This document shows, piece after piece, positions 19,920 to 28,612 of a stretch of 46,966 nt of DNA (its first letter is position 1; each line of letters opens with the position of its first letter). The notes beneath the pieces are model-generated. The model was not told the DNA's origin. It did no database searches and saw only the letters and a program-made list of their open reading frames with translations. The DNA comes from a virus, in IMG/VR virus record IMGVR_UViG_3300032204_000004; one strand, given 5' to 3'. The position numbers and the translations under genes were made by a program.

Positions 19920-21135
19920 ACGTCCGCTGTCCTGTCTTACGATCCATCCCCACCGCCTTTAACATTCCCGAATTTTGCATCACGTCGATAACCCGCATCA
20001 CAGAATGGAGCGGGAGACGTTCGCGCGCGAAGTTAACAATCCGCTGCTCTCCAACTCCCTGACCCCGATCGCTGGTTAGGACGAAGTGTTTGATTTCGTC
20101 AAGGGCTTGGCCATCAGCGTTGGACGAACCGGCTTTGAAGATTTCTGGCATCGCGCTTTCGGCTTCAACCAACCAACCCAATGCGCGGTCGAAATCCTCC
20201 TTCATCAGGATCAGCGTGTTCGATCGATCAATCGCAGAGATCATCGATAGCTTATAAAGATGAGCCCTTCGTCGAGTGACATAGTGAATGAGCTTGGGAT
20301 GGGAAGGAACAGGGAGTTCGCCTTTTCCTCGCCAGTCATTGACCGCGTCTCGATAATCTTCAGTGACTTCGAATTCCCCGTTGAGCGTATTGATAATACG
20401 TAGGTCGTGTTCGAGCGAAGTGGAATGGTTGATTGTCTTTGGGGCGAAATCGTCTCCGAGGATTCTTTCATCGCTGAACACCATGATTAGGCGGGAGGTG
20501 AAGCCTTGGTCCCATGCGCCTTCGGGCATGAACTTGAGGAGGTTCGAGGGGGTGCTGCCGCAGAGCATGTTTAGTTGAGGGCTTTTGATTTTGATATTCA
20601 AGTCGCGGGTGCGGCGAGTTTGGCTATACGGATCGGGATCGTAGAAGGCTGAGAGCCCCGCGATCATCTCATCGTCATACTTGCTTACGAAAGCGCCAAG
20701 CTCATCAGCAGCAATGAACATAGAATTATATTCGAGAGGAGCATCAGGCAGACGAACAACCATTCTCTTTGCAACCAGAAGTGCGTCAACCAAGCTAGCG
20801 AAAGTAAGACTAACAGGAGCAAGATGAAAGTCAGGAAGATCATGAACATAGGAACGGGCCTCGCGAATGGTTCGGGTCTTACCCACGCCGGGATGACCGA
20901 GGATTAGGATATACATATTTGGATAGAGTGGGCGTGAAGTCCGCACCCACACCTTCTGTTCCAAGACAGCCGCTATCGCGCTAATCGCAGACCACTTGCG
21001 GAATAGCTTCGGGCTATCCAGTGCGTCGGTTTGTTGTACGAATGCGTCGATCCAAGAGGTCAGCTTCCGGGACCCGCGTCCTTTTGTCTGGCCCTTTGTA
21101 GTCTTGGAGTCCGTTTGGATTTTTTGATGCATCAT
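19888..21135 (-). CDS. P-loop NTPase, putative replicative helicase (DUF3987-like)
   Basis: Walker A (LGHPGVGKT) and Walker B (MFIAADELG). Start taken at ATG 21135; the track's GTG 21144 is also possible. Overlaps the polymerase 3' end. Confidence 0.6.
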   Translation of the reverse strand: MMHQKIQTDSKTTKGQTKGRGSRKLTSWIDAFVQQTDALDSPKLFRKWSAISAIAAVLEQKVWVRTSRPLYPNMYILILGHPGVGKTRTIREARSYVHDLPDFHLAPVSLTFASLVDALLVAKRMVVRLPDAPLEYNSMFIAADELGAFVSKYDDEMIAGLSAFYDPDPYSQTRRTRDLNIKIKSPQLNMLCGSTPSNLLKFMPEGAWDQGFTSRLIMVFSDERILGDDFAPKTINHSTSLEHDLRIINTLNGEFEVTEDYRDAVNDWRGKGELPVPSHPKLIHYVTRRRAHLYKLSMISAIDRSNTLILMKEDFDRALGWLVEAESAMPEIFKAGSSNADGQALDEIKHFVLTSDRGQGVGEQRIVNFARERLPLHSVMRVIDVMQNSGMLKAVGMDRKTGQRTFKVAERDPDL

Positions 21136-22531
21136 ACTTTCCACGATTCCAGCCGACCTGACAGTCGTATGGTATTTCTAGCGTTCGACCATTGGCCAGT
21201 TTAATAGGGGTGATGAGATTGGCTTTAAGTTGTGGAAGAATGATTTCTTCGAGTTCTTGTGGGTATTGGAATGTGAGCGCGTCGTGATCTTGCATCATGA
21301 GGGTGGCGATGTTGAGTCGCCAAATGTTTAGCATCGCGGTGTTGACGATGTCGGCAAGGGAGCCTTGGGGGTCGAATGCGATAGCCGCACGGATGGTGTC
21401 TGGATCATTGCGGCGTCCCCAAAAATATCGCTTCCGGCCCATCAACGAGACGAGGTACCCTTTCGTCCAGACTTGGTCTTCGACCCACTCTTGCCAGCGT
21501 TGGTGCGCGGGGAAGGCCGAGAAGTATTTGGGCTGGAAATTCGAAACCACCCCAACGGGAAGCTTAGATTGCTGTGCGAGAGTGGTAGGTCGTCCGCCGT
21601 AGTTCGACCCGTGGCCGAGCTTCTTGCACATGAAACGGTAAGTGTAATGTCGGTAGAATGGGGTCTCCGCAATATCTTTATCTCTTGCAAAGTCTCCGGT
21701 CCATGAAAGTTCTGGCCAACAAATTCTTGCAACTGCTGTATGAACGTCCCCACTGTCAACCGCGTCGAGGTAGGTGGGGTCGTTGAAGAGGTTGTATTCG
21801 ATTGCGCCGACGACATAGGATTCTCCTGATTTTGCGTCGAATTTTGCGAACTTCATTCCGGAGTCGGAGATGAATATGCTTCTTAATGACTCTTCGATAT
21901 TCTGGAGATTCCCCCCGGTTCCATATTCACTGTAAGAAGATGAAAACCTACCTGTGTCAGTCCCTGCAATATTGTAAGAAGTTCGCATTCGTCCATCCGG
22001 GTCGATATCGGTTTTAAGGACTCCGATTTTCTTAGCAATCTCTCGCATAGTGGATATGTGAGCGATGATTGGCCGGGCGACGAGATACCCCTCCATCTTC
22101 TCCAAAGCGTTGCGATCAACGGTCGGTCTCCCTTGCTTTTTAATCGGTGGGATATTGAGTTTGGTGTAGAACAGGTGTTGTAGATCGGCATTAGAGCGCC
22201 AATTGAAGTGGGGCATACCCACCCCTTCGAGGACGAGACGAGACAACTGCCGTTCAAGAATGTCGAGTTGGTTGTAGAACTCATCCATAACCTCCATCTT
22301 ACGGACGTTGTCAATTTTGACCCCGCGCCCGTTCATTTCGAGAACGGGGCCTTGAAGGGCGCGGGAGAAGGCGTAGGTCTTGGCTTCGTGGGAGGTGGCT
22401 TCGTTTTCAGAGAACTTGATTGCTTCAAAGACCTCACGCGTGATACATACGTCAAGGCCGTTGTAGACCTGCTCACGCTCAAAGCCGGTTAGGGCAGAGG
22501 GTTCGATTTCAGCGGTTTTGATTATTTTCAT
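21014..22531 (-). CDS. family A DNA polymerase, C-terminal part (Exo III motif + polymerase domain)
   Basis: Contains QVYNGLD (YxxxD), DTGRFSSS...GGNLQNI (motif A region), KLGHGSNYGG (motif B) and MQDHDAL (motif C). Start taken at ATG 22531. Confidence 0.9.
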   Translation of the reverse strand: MKIIKTAEIEPSALTGFEREQVYNGLDVCITREVFEAIKFSENEATSHEAKTYAFSRALQGPVLEMNGRGVKIDNVRKMEVMDEFYNQLDILERQLSRLVLEGVGMPHFNWRSNADLQHLFYTKLNIPPIKKQGRPTVDRNALEKMEGYLVARPIIAHISTMREIAKKIGVLKTDIDPDGRMRTSYNIAGTDTGRFSSSYSEYGTGGNLQNIEESLRSIFISDSGMKFAKFDAKSGESYVVGAIEYNLFNDPTYLDAVDSGDVHTAVARICWPELSWTGDFARDKDIAETPFYRHYTYRFMCKKLGHGSNYGGRPTTLAQQSKLPVGVVSNFQPKYFSAFPAHQRWQEWVEDQVWTKGYLVSLMGRKRYFWGRRNDPDTIRAAIAFDPQGSLADIVNTAMLNIWRLNIATLMMQDHDALTFQYPQELEEIILPQLKANLITPIKLANGRTLEIPYDCQVGWNRGKYDASKNPNGLQDYKGPDKRTRVPEADLLDRRIRTTNRRTG

Positions 22532-22533
22532 TT

Positions 22534-22788
22534 TCAATGTAACTTAGAACATTGTGGACAAGTAACATCATTACCATTCCTCCGCCACCCTATTTCCGCA
22601 AACATTTTTGGTGCCATTTCTTCTATTAAAATTCTTATAGCATTGTCTACATTTCCAGCATCATAAGCAATACCTACCATTCCTTGATCCTTGTGCAAAA
22701 CACACCAGTCACTTTGTGATTTACATATACAACATTTATATGCAACCATAGCTATATGTGGAGGTTTCGGTTTACCAATAACCCACAT
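22534..22788 (-). CDS. AT-rich Cys-rich mini-ORF splitting the polymerase gene
   Basis: 84 aa with CCIC...CPQC. TAATG overlap with the upstream ORF. Its stop lies 2 nt before the polymerase ATG. Composition is visibly AT-rich compared with both flanks. Confidence 0.6.
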   Translation of the reverse strand: MWVIGKPKPPHIAMVAYKCCICKSQSDWCVLHKDQGMVGIAYDAGNVDNAIRILIEEMAPKMFAEIGWRRNGNDVTCPQCSKLH

Positions 22789-23891
22789 TACGAATCCCTC
22801 TTAATCGTATCAGCTTCTTTCCGCATATGTTTCCAACTTCCATGATCAGTATACACCGATCCCAGATAACCTAATCCTTTGAGACTTTCCGGCTGCCTTG
22901 CGTGGTGGAGGAGCATCGTATCCTCCGCCGCCCCAAGCGTCCGAATTCCGTACGAACGGTAGAGGAATTGGATGTCGTAGACTCCGTTTTGGAACAACTT
23001 GCGGATTGATGCATCCTCAAGAACTCCACGGATAATTTGCCAACACTCATATTCAAGCTCTGAAGTAGGCCAATAACTTCCTCCCGGCTTTCGGGAGTCA
23101 TCGAACGGTATAACGATTGCAAGGTCTCCTCGGACGCCGAAGCCAATACATGTAACCCTTGTTCCAGATGTTTCGATGTCAACAGACAATAGCCCTTCTG
23201 GAGCCACAAAGCGGCCCATGAAGTCTCGAATATCGTCAAGGGTTGGTTCGATCCAGATTTCACAGTTCGGCCTCCTTATTTCCTGAAACGCTGATTCTCG
23301 CTTGGCTTTGACTAAATCCATTATGGTCGTGGGTCGAAGCTCCCATTGTCGAAGCACAGCAGAAGGGTGGTAAGTAGGCAGAAGCTTAAAGCCACCAACA
23401 GTGTGTGTAGAGAGGAGCGTCGTGCCTCGTAGTTTAGTGACTCCACTTTTGCCAGTAAGCGCCCAGAGAGCAGTATTGCCCAGAGCAATGATGAGATTTG
23501 GATCGTGGTCAACAATTTCGTCCCCTAAGCGATCGAGTTCGGATTGGTATTGGGCGAGGAGGTATTTGCCTTTGATGAGTGCAGGGTATCCGGCTACGCC
23601 TTCACGGCTGCCGCCACAGATATTGTTGAGATCGTTGGCGTGGGGGTGGAATTGGAAAACGTTGGTACGGAAAACGGTTGCGGAATGATTGTGCCAGACT
23701 TCGTCAACGGCTGTTGCGTCACCGTTGTTGTAGAACCTCGAAATGAGTGCGCGATCTTCGATTGTGAGGCTGATAATCTTGGCTTCGTCAAGCTGGCGCA
23801 AAAGCTCAATGCCAGAAGGCCCGACAAAACAAGAATTAATTTTTTGTTCATTTGCACCTTTTGCCTCCCCCACGATAACTATAGGTGTCAT
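22788..23891 (-). CDS. DNA polymerase N-terminal part: UDG-like domain + 3'-5' exonuclease motifs Exo I and Exo II
   Basis: UDG family 4-type motifs: GEAKGANEQ...CFVGPSG, FRTNVFQFHP, TYHPSAVLR. Exonuclease motifs: VDIET (Exo I), FQNGVYD (Exo II) and EDTML. Confidence 0.8.
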   Translation of the reverse strand: MTPIVIVGEAKGANEQKINSCFVGPSGIELLRQLDEAKIISLTIEDRALISRFYNNGDATAVDEVWHNHSATVFRTNVFQFHPHANDLNNICGGSREGVAGYPALIKGKYLLAQYQSELDRLGDEIVDHDPNLIIALGNTALWALTGKSGVTKLRGTTLLSTHTVGGFKLLPTYHPSAVLRQWELRPTTIMDLVKAKRESAFQEIRRPNCEIWIEPTLDDIRDFMGRFVAPEGLLSVDIETSGTRVTCIGFGVRGDLAIVIPFDDSRKPGGSYWPTSELEYECWQIIRGVLEDASIRKLFQNGVYDIQFLYRSYGIRTLGAAEDTMLLHHARQPESLKGLGYLGSVYTDHGSWKHMRKEADTIKRDS

Positions 23892-24328
23892 ATCATTCTT
23901 CCCAGATTGTCACGTTCTCTTTTACTAGCATGTTCCGAGGTATGGCAATATGAACATAAAATTTCTAAATTTTCAGGAATGTTGTTTGTTCTATCTTGAT
24001 CCTTATGATGTATGTGATGATTCATATCTTGTCGAACAAATCCACATCTTTCACAAATATGTAAATTACGATTCAAGGATTTCATTAGTGCTTGGTTATG
24101 TCGTCTTATAGTACGTTTTGATAATCCTGTAACATGAGCATTCTTATTGCCATATTGGGCACCTTGTTTCCATCCAATTATATTACAGGAAGCAGCAAAA
24201 ACTCTAATTGTTGATACGTGACATGAAAGATAATCAGCTATTTCATGTTGATTCATATCAAGATCGCGTAGAGCCATAATAGCTTCTTTTCTTTGATCAA
24301 AGCCTAGCTGCTTCCAGTATAGTTTCAT
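23859..24328 (-). mobile_element. HNH homing-endonuclease cassette (HNH ORF plus recoded copy of the target 5' end)
   Basis: AT-rich block. It lies between the leftover copy at 24325..24360 and the recoded copy at 23859..23891. Confidence 0.6.
23888..24328 (-). CDS. HNH homing endonuclease with N-terminal HTH
   Basis: Track ORF trimmed to ATG 24328. HNH motif: CERCG...HHIHHKDQDRTNN..ENLEILCSYCHTSEH. ATGA overlap with the downstream polymerase gene. Confidence 0.8.
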   Translation of the reverse strand: MKLYWKQLGFDQRKEAIMALRDLDMNQHEIADYLSCHVSTIRVFAASCNIIGWKQGAQYGNKNAHVTGLSKRTIRRHNQALMKSLNRNLHICERCGFVRQDMNHHIHHKDQDRTNNIPENLEILCSYCHTSEHASKRERDNLGRMI

Positions 24329-24360
24329 TTGGCCTCGCCGATTATGACGATGGGTGTCAC
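24325..24360 (-). pseudogene. leftover original 5' end of the UDG-exonuclease gene (mini-ORF VTPIVIIGEAK-stop)
   Basis: GTG ACA CCC ATC GTC ATA ATC GGC GAG GCC AAA TGA duplicates MTPIVIVGEAK at 23859..23891. GTGA overlap with the upstream gene. Its stop overlaps the HNH ATG. Confidence 0.65.
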
Positions 24361-24614
24361 TTACACTTTTCCTCAACGAGGACAGCATAGCCACGCACAT
24401 CTTCCCAATGCTGCTTCGAGAGGGACTTGCCGGAGAGGATACGCGAGAACTTGAGAGCAATCATATCCATCGCCTCGCGTTCGATATACGACAGTCGATG
24501 CCAGCCTACAGCGGACTGGAAAACGGTTTTGATCCGCTGGGAGAGTTGAGCATTCTCCTCAAACGATCCGTGGGTGGTTTCACGTTCAGCGAGGAGCGGG
24601 TCGCGTTCGGTCAT
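24357..24614 (-). CDS. small all-alpha protein, MazG-like / DUF6378-like
   Basis: The HGSFEENAQ...EREAMDMIALKFSRIL...WEDVRGYAVL pattern recalls phage nucleotide pyrophosphohydrolase N-terminal domains. Call is from memory only. Confidence 0.4.
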   Translation of the reverse strand: MTERDPLLAERETTHGSFEENAQLSQRIKTVFQSAVGWHRLSYIEREAMDMIALKFSRILSGKSLSKQHWEDVRGYAVLVEEKCK

Positions 24615-25128: not shown

Positions 25129-25401
25129 TTAGGTTTCCGGGTTGGTTGCTGGTTCGTATGTAGCCTCAAAAATGTCAGGTTTACATGGGTAAACTTCTCC
25201 CTTTACTCCTTTGATAATCCAATCTCCAGCATCAGCTTTCATGATACCTTCGAGAGTTTCGATAAACATATTTGGAAAGTTGATAGTAACCTTTCCGTGT
25301 TCTATCAAATCAACAATCCACTCTGGGTCCTCGATTTGATATACATCACCTGACCATTTGAAAGCTTCAATGGTTATAGGCTTTTTGCGATAGTATCCCA
25401 T
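25129..25401 (-). CDS. hypothetical small protein (AT-rich gene)
   Basis: 90-aa ORF with GDWIIKGVKGEVYPCKPDIFEATYE, a motif common in small phage proteins. Confidence 0.6.
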   Translation of the reverse strand: MGYYRKKPITIEAFKWSGDVYQIEDPEWIVDLIEHGKVTINFPNMFIETLEGIMKADAGDWIIKGVKGEVYPCKPDIFEATYEPATNPET

Positions 25402-26255: not shown

Positions 26256-26431
26256 TCAGTTTCCAATTCTACGATTAAGTTAACACGATCAAATAGGGTG
26301 GCGGAATCGATAGGGAGTTTGAGTTGGACACCTAAGAGTTGAACGGCGAGATTGCCTTCGTTGTCGTAGGTCCAAGGGAGATTGAGGCAGATGTATCTTG
26401 TTTTATTCAACGCGGACGAAGCGGATTCCAT
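26207..26431 (-). CDS. possible small ORF filling the exonuclease/ATPase gap
   Basis: Only ORF spanning the 150-nt gap 26256..26406. It overlaps both neighbours (25 and 49 nt) and has no clear RBS. Confidence 0.25.
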   Translation of the reverse strand: MESASSALNKTRYICLNLPWTYDNEGNLAVQLLGVQLKLPIDSATLFDRVNLIVELETECPPSPNTNPTNSQNF

Positions 26432-27348
26432 CTGTCCTCCGGAGCTAGCTTGATAAAGTCCGCCTCAAGGAACCGTTCGCGAACAGATGGGTCTTTGGAG
26501 CAGACGCCACGAAAACGACAGCCACCAAACTTGTCACAAGCGGTGTCGTTCATTGGCCAATATCCCACTGTAGCATAGTTCTCAGCGGATGTCAACCAGA
26601 ACTTGAGATCGTCGAGCCATTCGTGTGTTTGGGCAGGTGTGCGGAAGGTGAAGCCTCGGACGTAGTTGTTGGGCTTTTCGAGCAGGACTTGCGCGGCGTC
26701 GATTACGACACCTTTGACTACAGTGTTGAGAACGATCTGGCCCGCGAGGGTGTAGAGGGACATTTGGTTGTTTGGACTATACTGGTCGAAGTAGTATGAT
26801 CCAGGCGTGGTTGTGGTCGTCTTGCGATCCATGACGAGGGTTTCGCCATTGAAGTCAACCACACGGTCGAGATGGCCGCTTAGGAGGAATGGTTGGTTGG
26901 TTCCGCTTTGAGGTCCAAATGGAAGTTCAAAACGGAAGCTCACCTCAGTCGCGGCCTTCCCACTCTCCAACACCTTTGTCTGTGCGGGGTCGTCCTTATA
27001 CCGATCGAGATAATCAATCACCAATGAAAGAAGGGTCCGTGGGTTTTTATACGCACCAGCGCGGCTAGTAATATCAGGGTCCCAATCGTGGATACGAATA
27101 AGAAGGTCTCGAACCGCGTCCAATAGCGCGTCATCATGCTTTTTGCCAGCCAATTTGTGAGCATCGTATTCCTCAAGGGCTTTGTGATATTCAATCCCGA
27201 AACGGAGGTGAACGGAGTCGTCCTTTGGAGCCCAGCCTTCGATCATTATATAGTAATACAGTTTTGGGCACGTCTTGAGATAGCCCAAGCTGGTACTATC
27301 AAAAGCGTATTGTATATTAGTTCCCGGAAGAAATGGTGAAATTACCAC
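26407..27348 (-). CDS. Cas4-like PD-(D/E)XK exonuclease with 4-Cys cluster
   Basis: LKTCP (first Cys), HLDRV, LVMDRKT (DxK), QMSLYT (QxxxY), CDKFGGCRFRGVC. The start is uncertain: GTG 27348 matches the duplicated native N-terminus, and the track gives GTG 27429. Confidence 0.75.
   Translation of the reverse strand: MVISPFLPGTNIQYAFDSTSLGYLKTCPKLYYYIMIEGWAPKDDSVHLRFGIEYHKALEEYDAHKLAGKKHDDALLDAVRDLLIRIHDWDPDITSRAGAYKNPRTLLSLVIDYLDRYKDDPAQTKVLESGKAATEVSFRFELPFGPQSGTNQPFLLSGHLDRVVDFNGETLVMDRKTTTTTPGSYYFDQYSPNNQMSLYTLAGQIVLNTVVKGVVIDAAQVLLEKPNNYVRGFTFRTPAQTHEWLDDLKFWLTSAENYATVGYWPMNDTACDKFGGCRFRGVCSKDPSVRERFLEADFIKLAPEDRWNPLRPR
26567..26595 (-). promoter_or_regulatory. candidate internal sigma70-type promoter
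   Basis: Minus strand TTGACA-17 nt-TACAGT, located inside the exonuclease gene. Confidence 0.3.
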
Positions 27349-27796
27349 CGAGGTAACTTGATCCTTTTTCGCTGATATAATTCCAGACTGTGTTTCCAGA
27401 GAGATGGAGTCTTTTGGCGATTTCGTCACGGCTTAATCCTTGTTCATATAATGGTTTAATTCGTTTCCAAGTCTCTTGCCTTCGCCTTTCACCAACCAAA
27501 GGATCGTCTATTTTTCGTCCTTTAGATATCATGTCATTTGTATTATCTTGAGCAGTTCCTAAGAATAAATGATTGACATTTATACAAGCTCTATTATCAC
27601 ATTTATGTAGTACCATTTGATTTTGATCGTGTTCTGGATTTGATGCAAAATATACTATTCGATGCGCACGTTGTTTTACCTCACGACCAAAACTAATTGG
27701 GATATATCCTTTGGCATTTGGCCTCAGATGACTTACGAGACAGCCGTTTATATTAATGGAATTAGCTACAAGCCAATCAGCCTTTTGCTTAACCCA
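27304..27796 (-). mobile_element. HNH homing-endonuclease cassette (HNH body plus recoded copy of the exonuclease 5' end)
   Basis: AT-rich block lying between the resident copy (27797..27844) and the recoded copy (27304..27348) of the same peptide. Confidence 0.6.
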
Positions 27797-27844
27797 TGCG
27801 TATTGGATGTTGGTGTTGAGGAGGAACGGGGAAAGGACGGTCAT
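27317..27844 (-). CDS. HNH (HNH_3-type) homing endonuclease fused to the first 16 codons of the exonuclease gene; C-terminal HTH
   Basis: GGAGG lies 5 nt upstream of ATG 27844. HNH motif: AHRIVY...LHKCDNRACINVNHLFLGTAQDN. HTH: LSRDEIAKRLHLSGNTVWNYI. Confidence 0.8.
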   Translation of the reverse strand: MTVLSPFLLNTNIQYAWVKQKADWLVANSININGCLVSHLRPNAKGYIPISFGREVKQRAHRIVYFASNPEHDQNQMVLHKCDNRACINVNHLFLGTAQDNTNDMISKGRKIDDPLVGERRRQETWKRIKPLYEQGLSRDEIAKRLHLSGNTVWNYISEKGSSYLGGNFTISSGN

Positions 27845-28062
27845 CAAATCCTCCGTTTTACATCTGGACCCGCGACCTTCAAGCCAAGGGCCGTCAAATC
27901 AAGCTTGGTCTTTGGCCCCGCATCCTTTTTCGCCTTACCACCATTTTCGCGATAGGCGCGCTGATTGCGGTAGTAGGCGATGACGACTTTGAGATCGAGA
28001 TCGGTCATGGAGAGTGGGTCTTTGGACATGACTGTGTCAATGTCGTTGGGTTCATCGGTCAT
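27844..28062 (-). CDS. hypothetical protein
   Basis: Track ORF trimmed to ATG 28062 (ATGA overlap with the upstream gene). 72 aa. Confidence 0.55.
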   Translation of the reverse strand: MTDEPNDIDTVMSKDPLSMTDLDLKVVIAYYRNQRAYRENGGKAKKDAGPKTKLDLTALGLKVAGPDVKRRI

Positions 28063-28280
28063 TCCGGAAGCTTCGTTGTTTTGCGGCACATAAACACGGT
28101 GTCTGGGATATTGGGGAGGAATATCATGACCTCGGCGAAATTGGGATTGTTGGCGACTTCGCGTGCTTTGTAGAGTTCGGACGAGAGGAGCTTTGGGTCG
28201 TTGGTTTCGATAGCGATGCCGACCTCTGACTCGAAGGCGCGCTCCCAGAGAGGGATGTAGATGTTTGGATTGCGGGCCAT
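28059..28280 (-). CDS. hypothetical protein
   Basis: GGAGGA RBS. TGATG coupling. 73 aa. Confidence 0.6.
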   Translation of the reverse strand: MARNPNIYIPLWERAFESEVGIAIETNDPKLLSSELYKAREVANNPNFAEVMIFLPNIPDTVFMCRKTTKLPE

Positions 28281-28612
28281 CAGTCCTCCAAATCGCTCAG
28301 GCTCTCGGCTTCGGCCAAGGGCGTGAATTTATTATACGGTTCAAGATAGGCGAACCATGTGCCATCATCGCCTTCTTTGATTGAGATCATCAGGATGTCG
28401 TAGGCCGATTTGGCATAGAGCGGATCGCCGGGTTTGTGGAGTTGTTTGTTATCAGAGCGATCCAGCTTCCGTGCCATATGAGCGCGGGTTCGCCAACGCT
28501 CGGCGTCGGATTTATAATCAAAGGGAAGGCGAATACCCTTTGGGTCCTCAAGGGCTTTTTGGAACGCCTCGATGATGTCTTGGTAGGCGAGTAGGGAGGT
28601 GGAGAGGCTCAT
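28280..28612 (-). CDS. hypothetical protein
   Basis: 110-aa ORF directly downstream of the helicase gene. Confidence 0.6.
   Translation of the reverse strand: MSLSTSLLAYQDIIEAFQKALEDPKGIRLPFDYKSDAERWRTRAHMARKLDRSDNKQLHKPGDPLYAKSAYDILMISIKEGDDGTWFAYLEPYNKFTPLAEAESLSDLED

Follow-up and report, generated by a model that had tools for sequence, protein, structure and literature searches.

SegF and SegG of T4 are reportedly free-standing phage homing endonucleases that display intronless homing with co-conversion. In the mORF elements of fungal mitochondria, an open reading frame (ORF) for a LAGLIDADG or GIY-YIG enzyme travels with a foreign C-terminus of the host gene that has diverged mostly at synonymous sites, and the native C-terminus is left as a remnant (PMC3630166, PMC6279837). 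Examples are atp6 of Allomyces macrogynus and atp6, atp9, cox2 and nad3 of Glomus (PMC3630166), and partial C-terminal duplications of atp6 and cob are flanked by ORFs of homing endonuclease genes (HEGs; PMC6279837). In 'fractured genes' such as the split nrdA of Aeh1, the 3' end of the HEG overlaps the downstream gene part by 6-69 bp and supplies its initiator codon, and it was already proposed that a start site kept at the HEG 3' end helps invasion (PMC2677866). Here we describe a locus in a 46,966-nt stretch of viral DNA (IMG/VR record IMGVR_UViG_3300032204_000004; hereafter the window, meaning the whole stretch analysed), in which an HNH endonuclease ORF is joined to the start of a PD-(D/E)XK (Cas4-like) exonuclease gene and is followed by a second, differently coded copy of that start. 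The locus is very likely an occupied site of a recurrent phage homing-endonuclease cassette, which targets the Ala-Trp junction in the motif …IQ(Y/F)A^WDSTS of the exonuclease gene (the caret marks the insertion point). The closest known analogue is the mORF, of which this is a mirror image; until now, such arrangements were known chiefly from gene ends in fungal mitochondria. The literature searched, whose coverage is incomplete and no proof of absence, yielded no description of a phage precedent for 5'-end replacement.

All features of the locus lie on the minus strand. The upstream gene (27844..28089) encodes 81 aa and ends in a TGA (27846..27844) that overlaps the start ATG of copy A (27797..27844; MTVLSPFLLNTNIQYA). 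Copy A comprises codons 1-16 of the resident exonuclease gene and has become the start and leader of the HNH protein; the Trp codon TGG after it (27796..27794) may also be resident. The GGAGG Shine-Dalgarno (SD) sequence ahead of this TGATG-coupled ATG (27850..27854, read from the sequence) belonged to the original exonuclease start and now serves the HNH ORF. Homologues of the 81-aa gene stand directly upstream of the exonuclease gene, or of the HNH gene, in most related loci, and similar GGAGG or AGGAG…TG-ATG contexts precede the first gene of the HNH/exonuclease pair in relatives. From the ATG of copy A the HNH ORF extends over 175 aa plus the stop TAA 27319..27317 (27317..27844), with a Pfam HNH_3 domain at about 27670..27542 and a putative helix-turn-helix (HTH) at about 27466..27371. 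Copy B (27304..27348, from GTG 27348 to GCT 27304; VVISPFLPGTNIQYA) is the replacement exonuclease N-terminus. It is followed by Phe (27303..27301) where homologues have Trp, and reads as VVISPFLPGTNIQYA-F-DSTSLGYLKTCP… into the body of an intact exonuclease (26407..27429; Pfam PDDEXK_1, 59.4 bits, cut-off 22, E = 6.8e-16). The translation shows a first Cys in LKTCP (codon 27270..27268), DRK, QMSLY and a C-x5-C-x5-C cluster, so that the four-Cys cluster is made up of one N-terminal and three C-terminal residues. Since the N-terminal Cys lies downstream of copy B, the full exonuclease is encoded.

The SPFL..TNIQYA motif occurs exactly twice in a six-frame translation of the window. Of the 12 residues in its core, 10 are the same in copies A and B, with different codons at 8 of these 10 (7 from G/C to A/T, 1 from A to T); counting all 11 identical residues of the two copies, just 2 have the same codon. 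All seven of the contigs read that contain this exonuclease also carry the HNH ORF, so the arrangement is not an assembly artefact, and the duplicated gene start flanking the HNH ORF is confirmed as real. The earlier note on this DNA, made from the sequence alone, had placed copy A at 27844..27797, with a GGAGG ribosome-binding site, TGATG coupling and an in-frame run into the HNH ORF, and had copy B (27348..27304) lead into the exonuclease body, with 10 of 12 core residues shared. All of this holds, on the sequence and the Pfam matches for copy A and on PDDEXK_1 and the Cys motifs for copy B.

Related loci are numbered with L. The exonuclease is encoded at 27 IMG/VR loci (46-74% identity) and belongs to a family with 2,668 homologues at E ≤ 1e-40, the best of which is 79% identical to that of the window. 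Loci without the HNH gene have one uninterrupted gene that starts M…SPFLPGTxIQ(Y/F)AWDSTS, usually directly after the homologue of the 81-aa gene, and Trp follows IQ(Y/F)A in 106 of the best 116 full-length homologues. A megablast search of GenBank phages gave no match for the 3-kb region, tblastn returned distant relatives only (Caulobacter phage Kuura at 40%), and an IMG/VR scan for close HNH relatives yielded a single remote match.

The insertion can be followed at nucleotide level in two pairs of near-isogenic occupied and empty alleles. In the first, the empty L113 and the in-frame L030 share flanks with 89-99.7% identity, and the insert is 511 nt. Up to the Ala codon, copy A of L030 matches the empty allele at 74 of 78 nt, and copy B at 43 of 78 nt; past the junction, the first 120 nt differ at 10 positions and the following 120 nt at none. 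In the second pair, the empty L117 and the occupied L035 are 98.2% identical over 2,005 nt upstream, running through copy A, which is identical to the empty allele at 57/57 nt, against 25/57 nt for copy B. Here the insert is 530 nt, and there is almost no co-conversion past the junction (3, 0, 1, 0, 0… mismatches per 30 nt). In these pairs the cassette boundaries are therefore sharp, the co-conversion tract ranges from about 6 to 120 nt, and presence or absence at one site is polymorphic between near-identical genomes. The insertion point at Ala-Trp is common to two HNH clades, within about 4 nt. As judged from these alignments, the mobile unit is the HNH gene together with copy B. The proposals of the earlier note that copy A is the resident gene start, matching the single gene of HNH-less relatives, and that the HNH ORF and copy B form an imported cassette with a co-conversion tract are thus both upheld. 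So is its expectation that an alignment with HNH-less relatives would reveal an uninterrupted gene, the clean insertions being seen in relatives and not in the lineage of the window.

Base composition marks the same boundaries in the window. The G+C content at third codon positions (GC3) is 0.82 in copy A, like that of the neighbouring genes, and 0.27 in the rest of the HNH ORF; it is 0.17-0.25 in copy B, 0.17 over exonuclease codons 1-18, and 0.57 after codon 18. The change-point falls at exonuclease codon 18, at about 27294 (permutation p = 0.02), which gives an AT3-rich tract of about 54 nt, shorter than the roughly 100 nt of AT-rich coding that the earlier note had estimated. Windowed GC descends to 0.30-0.43 at the locus, compared with 0.51 for the whole window, and the GC3 boundaries are sharp at both cassette ends; the profile that the earlier note had proposed to compute is accordingly not flat but steps at both junctions. 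From these boundaries, and by analogy with the inserts of the two pairs, the imported cassette would span 27301..27796 and consist of the HNH body without its own start and the replacement exonuclease 5' end. Its length is about 493 nt if the junctions are set at Ala-Trp.

The HNH homologues are of two kinds: six, at 48-67% identity, have the exonuclease-type leader …SPFLPGTNIQ(Y/F)A, joined to the HNH part at the same alignment column, and the rest start with MGRxAKTxEEIVEYLL. In contexts from four contig look-ups and one metagenome scan, eight metagenomic loci beyond the window show an in-frame fusion at the same boundary, …IQ(Y/F)A^WDSTS, making nine in-frame loci in total (the window, L029, L030, L031, L032, L033/34, L037, L038 and L039). 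In L029-L034 and L037-L039 the HNH gene is immediately upstream of, and overlaps, the PDDEXK_1 gene with the same synteny. About eight loci are free-standing (L012, L036 and L040-L045): the HNH gene occupies the TGATG-coupled position that follows the 81-aa gene and precedes the exonuclease gene, and copy A is absent. L035 represents a third configuration, in which copy A is a 22-codon mini-ORF (1951..2016 of L035) encoding MTNSSILSPFLPGTSIQYASCQ and a stop, and the HNH, a member of the free-standing clade, starts at an ATG of its own, 2 nt past the Ala codon; the stop of the mini-ORF, 7 nt past this ATG, suggests termination-reinitiation coupling. In every full-length HNH-bearing locus the frame offset from HNH to exonuclease is +1, and the exonuclease frame is open through the overlap. 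A neighbour-joining tree of the HNH core groups the in-frame loci in one clade, which lacks a SIDRGGRER insertion, with the exception of L031, whose placement is uncertain. The HNH distribution is incongruent with the exonuclease phylogeny: the window exonuclease has 74-79% identity to its closest HNH-less genes and no more than 64% to those that bear an HNH, and the window HNH is closest to that of L029 (67-69%). Taken over these sequence contexts, the element is a recurrent cassette family with three configurations and not a single accident.

Other elements were observed around the same gene. Two HNH-less loci have different small ORFs of no known family exactly between the 81-aa gene and the exonuclease start (L001 3764..3985, 73 aa; L113 875..1075, 66 aa), which makes this junction a putative general insertion hot spot. 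A further HNH_3 gene is found directly downstream of the exonuclease gene, before AAA_24, in L036 (4483..4983) and L025 (665..901), and both ends of the exonuclease gene are candidate HEG hot spots.

The window HNH ORF encodes an HNH-family catalytic domain (Pfam HNH_3, 32.1 bits, cut-off 24.8, E = 8.9e-8), and several Pfam HTH families match its C-terminus, with E-values from 4e-5 to 2e-3, all slightly under their cut-offs. C35, H39, H80, C82, D83, C87, H92, D100 and N101, which are invariant in 16 homologues, are all present. The AlphaFold2 (AF2) model, built on these 16 homologues, has a predicted local distance difference test (pLDDT) value of 86.6, with three helices at residues 117-157 and leader residues 1-14 as coil. 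Among PDB folds it comes closest to I-PpoI (E 9e-3) and I-HmuI (E 1.5e-2), with high Foldseek probability, a template modelling (TM) score of about 0.36 and 19% identity. There is no in-frame start between copy A and Met~79, and the HNH protein therefore depends on the ATG of copy A. We infer that the enzyme cleaves or nicks the empty site near Ala-Trp. The JGI label of this ORF is 'NarL/FixJ response regulator'.

In 13 of 16 HNH-bearing loci, the sequence (A/C)AAGG(A/G/C)-N7-9-ATG lies in the +1 frame of the HTH codons for QGL(D/S/N)R(Y/H/D)EIA, and this embedded ATG opens the exonuclease as M(K/T)KS…QSGT…SPFL. In L029 and L030 an ATG shortly before the HNH stop is used instead. The window has AAGGA at 27441..27437, within the HNH codons for …EQGL…, a 7-nt spacer, and GTG 27429 (27427..27429) at the position homologous to the ATG of relatives. 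This GTG is most likely the exonuclease start, and the product is likely the 340-aa ORF 27429..26407, whose N-terminal extension in the +1 frame overlaps the HNH C-terminus in frame 0 by 113 nt (27317..27429). For the alternative start GTG 27348, the AAGGA is 13 nt away. The earlier note had concluded that the exonuclease lost its start and SD; the conserved embedded signals speak against this. The two GTG codons that it named as the only in-frame starts before the first Cys codon both exist, but TTG 27288 is also in frame upstream of that codon. The public gene call for this exonuclease, P0056 (26407..27246, 279 aa), begins at an internal ATG (MIEGW…) and lacks the conserved N-terminal motif and the LKTCP (first Fe-S) cysteine, and two other truncated calls, P0095 and P0118, may point to additional occupied loci.

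The earlier note had proposed that the recoding would destroy the recognition site of the nuclease itself. Across the nine in-frame loci, copies A and B have the same codon at 28 of 125 identical residues, compared with 40.5 expected from independent draws of host-type and HNH-type codon usage (p ~0.006, approximate since L037 and L038 are related). A column-by-column comparison of 17 empty with 16 occupied alleles, in which sites more than 90% identical were collapsed, gave a single position that passes the Bonferroni threshold: position -10, the third base of the Ile codon, is C in 14/17 empty and 1/16 occupied alleles (p = 1.3e-5). The window copy B has ATA at this codon, not ATC, and the empty-type ATCCA is kept in 9 of 10 copy A segments, that of L032 being CTCCA. 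Suggestive signals are seen at -4, at +2/+3 and in a change of the Ser codon from TCN to AGY. This first Ser codon past the junction (+7..+9; window 27297..27295) is AGY in 9/16 occupied alleles, including AGT in the window, and TCN in most empty alleles; the change requires 2-3 substitutions (nominal p = 0.03) and could add positions on the right of the insertion point to the immunised target. In the window, the reconstructed empty site, with copy A joined to the exonuclease body, would read …ACCAACATCCAATACGCA^TGGGATAGTACC…, with …AACATCCAATACGCA^TGGGAT… at the insertion point, and the natural copy-B junction is …ACTAATATACAATACGCT^TTTGATAGTACC…. These results give position-specific backing to the proposal of the earlier note, and support, without proving, the suggestion that copy B carries target-immunising changes, and the pairs give a candidate target site, …ATCCA(A/G)T(A/T)CGCN^TGGGA…, with predicted immunising positions at -10, -4 and +2/+3.

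Taken together, these findings agree with the following mechanism. The mobile unit would comprise the HNH+HTH gene and a spare, differently coded exonuclease 5' end (copy B), with an SD sequence and a start for the spare end placed in the +1 frame of the HTH-coding region. Spread would proceed by double-strand-break repair, and on insertion the resident 5' end (copy A) would stay upstream. In the clade of the window the HNH gene, which has no start of its own, would be fused in frame to copy A and translated from the original GGAGG/TGATG-coupled ATG, while an intact exonuclease would be made from the embedded start, GTG 27429 in the window. The copy-B/body junction would no longer match the empty target. 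Copies A and B have hardly any nucleotide identity, so that recombination across the direct repeat cannot readily delete the element, and their divergence was presumably selected for immunity or stability. A wider generalisation is possible, although we put it forward only tentatively: besides introns and inteins, phage homing endonucleases may have a third general way to reside inside essential coding sequence, by means of a spare, maximally re-coded 5' end, a hidden start and takeover of the original start. The divergence would then be actively selected against excision and for immunity, and the free-standing, mini-ORF and in-frame configurations would be successive evolutionary steps.

Several observations weigh against the homing-cassette explanation or limit its reach. 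No near-isogenic empty allele was found for the window among the 2,668 homologues (best amino-acid identity 79%) or on the contigs, which are occupied in seven of seven cases, so the insertion in this phage is deduced from composition and analogy, and the direct proof comes from relatives. The placement of L031 is compatible with a single or a multiple origin of the in-frame junction. The HNH protein is a putative site-specific nuclease whose fold match to I-PpoI and I-HmuI is weak, and a PDB sequence search with it returned HTH matches only. The only phylogenetic correction in the association tests is the collapsing of sites more than 90% identical. The idea that copy B is always AT-shifted was rejected, as the shift is strong only in the window, L029, L030 and L039, is not seen in L031, L032, L034 and L038, and gives p = 0.12 against HNH-less genes (Mann-Whitney U test). 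The G/C-to-A/T change at third positions described by the earlier note thus stands for the window (7 of 8 changed codons) but is not general. Nor is Trp always exchanged for Phe or Leu, and this exchange was also rejected as a general immunity signature, Trp being kept in L030, L034 and L036-L039.

Part of this evidence could mean that the insertion is a fossil, which arrived by homing and is now fixed, possibly as an inactive or domesticated passenger, with copy A a leftover that happens to be in frame. The full occupancy of the contigs and the lack of a close empty allele among homologues point in this direction, as do the distance of the closest HNH relative (67-69% identity) and the drift of the window copy A from the family consensus (LLNT vs LPGT). 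We nevertheless consider it unlikely, given the intact HNH ORF with all family-invariant residues, the confident AF2 model and the near-isogenic presence/absence pairs in sister lineages; it also concerns present activity and not origin, and in this respect overlaps with the homing explanation. It is quite improbable that the HNH protein is instead a co-opted accessory of the recombination module, which shares the exonuclease N-terminal peptide in order to dock on the same partner. Such a partnership would explain why the exonuclease-type leader is kept in frame across the whole HNH clade and why the position is fixed in a conserved module of UvrD helicase, exonuclease and AAA_24. It does not fit with the patchy distribution on the exonuclease tree, the occupied/empty pairs, the free-standing and mini-ORF configurations without an in-frame leader, the leader being predicted unstructured, or a composition atypical for the genome.

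An origin of the two copies in situ, by tandem duplication of the gene start followed by divergence and insertion of the HNH gene between them, would leave copy B non-mobile. Copies A and B of L029 and L030 do share some features of a lineage-type N-terminal extension. The HLTxG-type extension is widespread, which weakens this point, and the pair data show a foreign origin. In both pairs, copy B is only 44-55% identical to the empty allele, yet the DNA directly beside it matches that allele almost completely, a step that local divergence cannot give; the GC3 boundaries are sharp, and copy B of L030 is nearer to other sublineages (…GATSPFI…, P0134) than to its own copy A. We therefore regard this origin as highly improbable. 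A protein-level comparison for chimerism of the window exonuclease placed L012 on top for residues 20-45, marginally, the N-terminus being conserved in everyone. Least credible of all is a splicing or recoding element (a group I or II intron, an intein or a programmed frameshift) that removes the insert or fuses HNH to exonuclease, even though, like introns and inteins, the insert interrupts a coding sequence within a conserved motif, and the two frames overlap by 113 nt at a +1 offset. A group I/II intron-encoded endonuclease was discarded, as no Rfam intron family matches 26300..28300 even at E ≤ 1, and so was an intein, as the HNH ORF ends at TAA 27319..27317 and the exonuclease continues in the +1 frame. 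Copy B would in addition be redundant, yet it is conserved at the protein level, and it is incompatible with exon ligation; the conserved SD and start account for exonuclease expression without frameshifting. The homing cassette is thus the explanation that we favour.

Elsewhere in the window, at 23888..24460 on the minus strand, there is a second, unrelated HNH ORF of 190 aa (Pfam HNH PF01844, 31.3 bits, and a weak HTH_38), in an AT-rich island (GC 0.375) directly upstream of the part of the DNA polymerase with the UDG and 3'-5' exonuclease domains; it probably encodes another homing endonuclease. The family-A DNA polymerase itself (21014..23891, minus strand) is divided between two ORFs. One carries UDG + DNA_pol_A_exo1 (367 aa, 22788..23891) and the other DNA_pol_A (507 aa, 21014..22537); between them, in an AT-rich island (GC 0.40), lies a Cys-rich ORF of 84 aa without a Pfam match (22534..22788). 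This may represent a split gene into which an element was inserted. In relatives, the small gene that follows AAA_24 matches Pfam Acb2_Tad1_hairpin, an anti-CBASS/anti-Thoeris sponge fold (L031 3434..3667; L036 5805..6077), and the window has a 90-aa ORF at the corresponding position (25129..25401).

If the homing explanation is correct, the most conserved stretch of a phage recombination gene can host a selfish nuclease, with the gene kept functional and no splicing machinery involved. The very low identity of copies A and B would guard against deletion through repeat recombination, in a phage equipped with a recombination module of its own, and the re-coded duplicate would serve as a natural experiment on the minimum direct-repeat identity that is compatible with stability in a recombination-proficient phage. 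There is also a consequence for annotation, since gene callers shorten the exonuclease to 279 aa, with loss of the first Fe-S Cys, and label the HNH as a response regulator.

The comparison with known systems delimits what is particular to this element. I-HmuI and I-PpoI (His-Me finger; PDB 1U3E, 1EVW) resemble the window HNH in the N-terminal His-Me/HNH module and, for I-HmuI, in the predicted C-terminal HTH, but both are intron-encoded and the similarity is weak. The hidden HNH of ShiLan in phage methylase genes (PMC11855218) is likewise intragenic, without intron or intein features, and involves overlapping frames. There, however, the host frame runs through the insert, which becomes an additional loop, and the HNH is coded in a different frame, whereas here the HNH is in the host frame and ends translation, and the host gene restarts from the duplicate. 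With the free-standing HEGs of the T4 SegF/SegG/MobE type (PMC2790892, PMC2988022) the element has in common the lack of an intron or intein, polymorphism among close relatives, AT-richness relative to the genome, and a presumed spread by break repair from the occupied allele with short co-conversion tracts; its sister HNH clade is truly free-standing, between the 81-aa gene and the exonuclease gene. The classical free-standing HEGs are intergenic and cut a neighbouring gene at a distance, while this one lies inside coding sequence at its putative target and brings a spare gene start. The fractured nrdA of Aeh1 shares the overlap of the HEG 3' end with the downstream gene (about 113 nt here), but its host protein is split and rejoined by split inteins or subunit assembly, whereas here the whole exonuclease is re-encoded through the duplicate 5' end.

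The likeness to the mORF is closest. In both cases the endonuclease ORF travels with a foreign copy of the end of the interrupted gene, diverged mostly at synonymous sites (HNH and copy B in both pair inserts), the element may share the phase of the host gene, and the displaced native end is closer to empty alleles than the replacement, with 91-98% vs 64-81% in Glomus and 95-100% vs 44-55% here. The phage element replaces the 5' end, whereas the mORF replaces the 3' end, and it is an HNH in a double-stranded DNA phage and not a LAGLIDADG or GIY-YIG in an organelle. Its replacement end also needs, and has, an embedded translation start of its own, and the displaced native piece is no dead remnant, since it supplies the ribosome-binding site, start and leader of the endonuclease. 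The phage element thus works like a mORF without being a member of that group, and the link points to gene-end replacement as a strategy that homing elements use in general. Notable in the phage case are its recurrence, the nucleotide-level mapping in natural pairs, the specific biochemical predictions that follow, and a displaced native piece that has become the start of the endonuclease.

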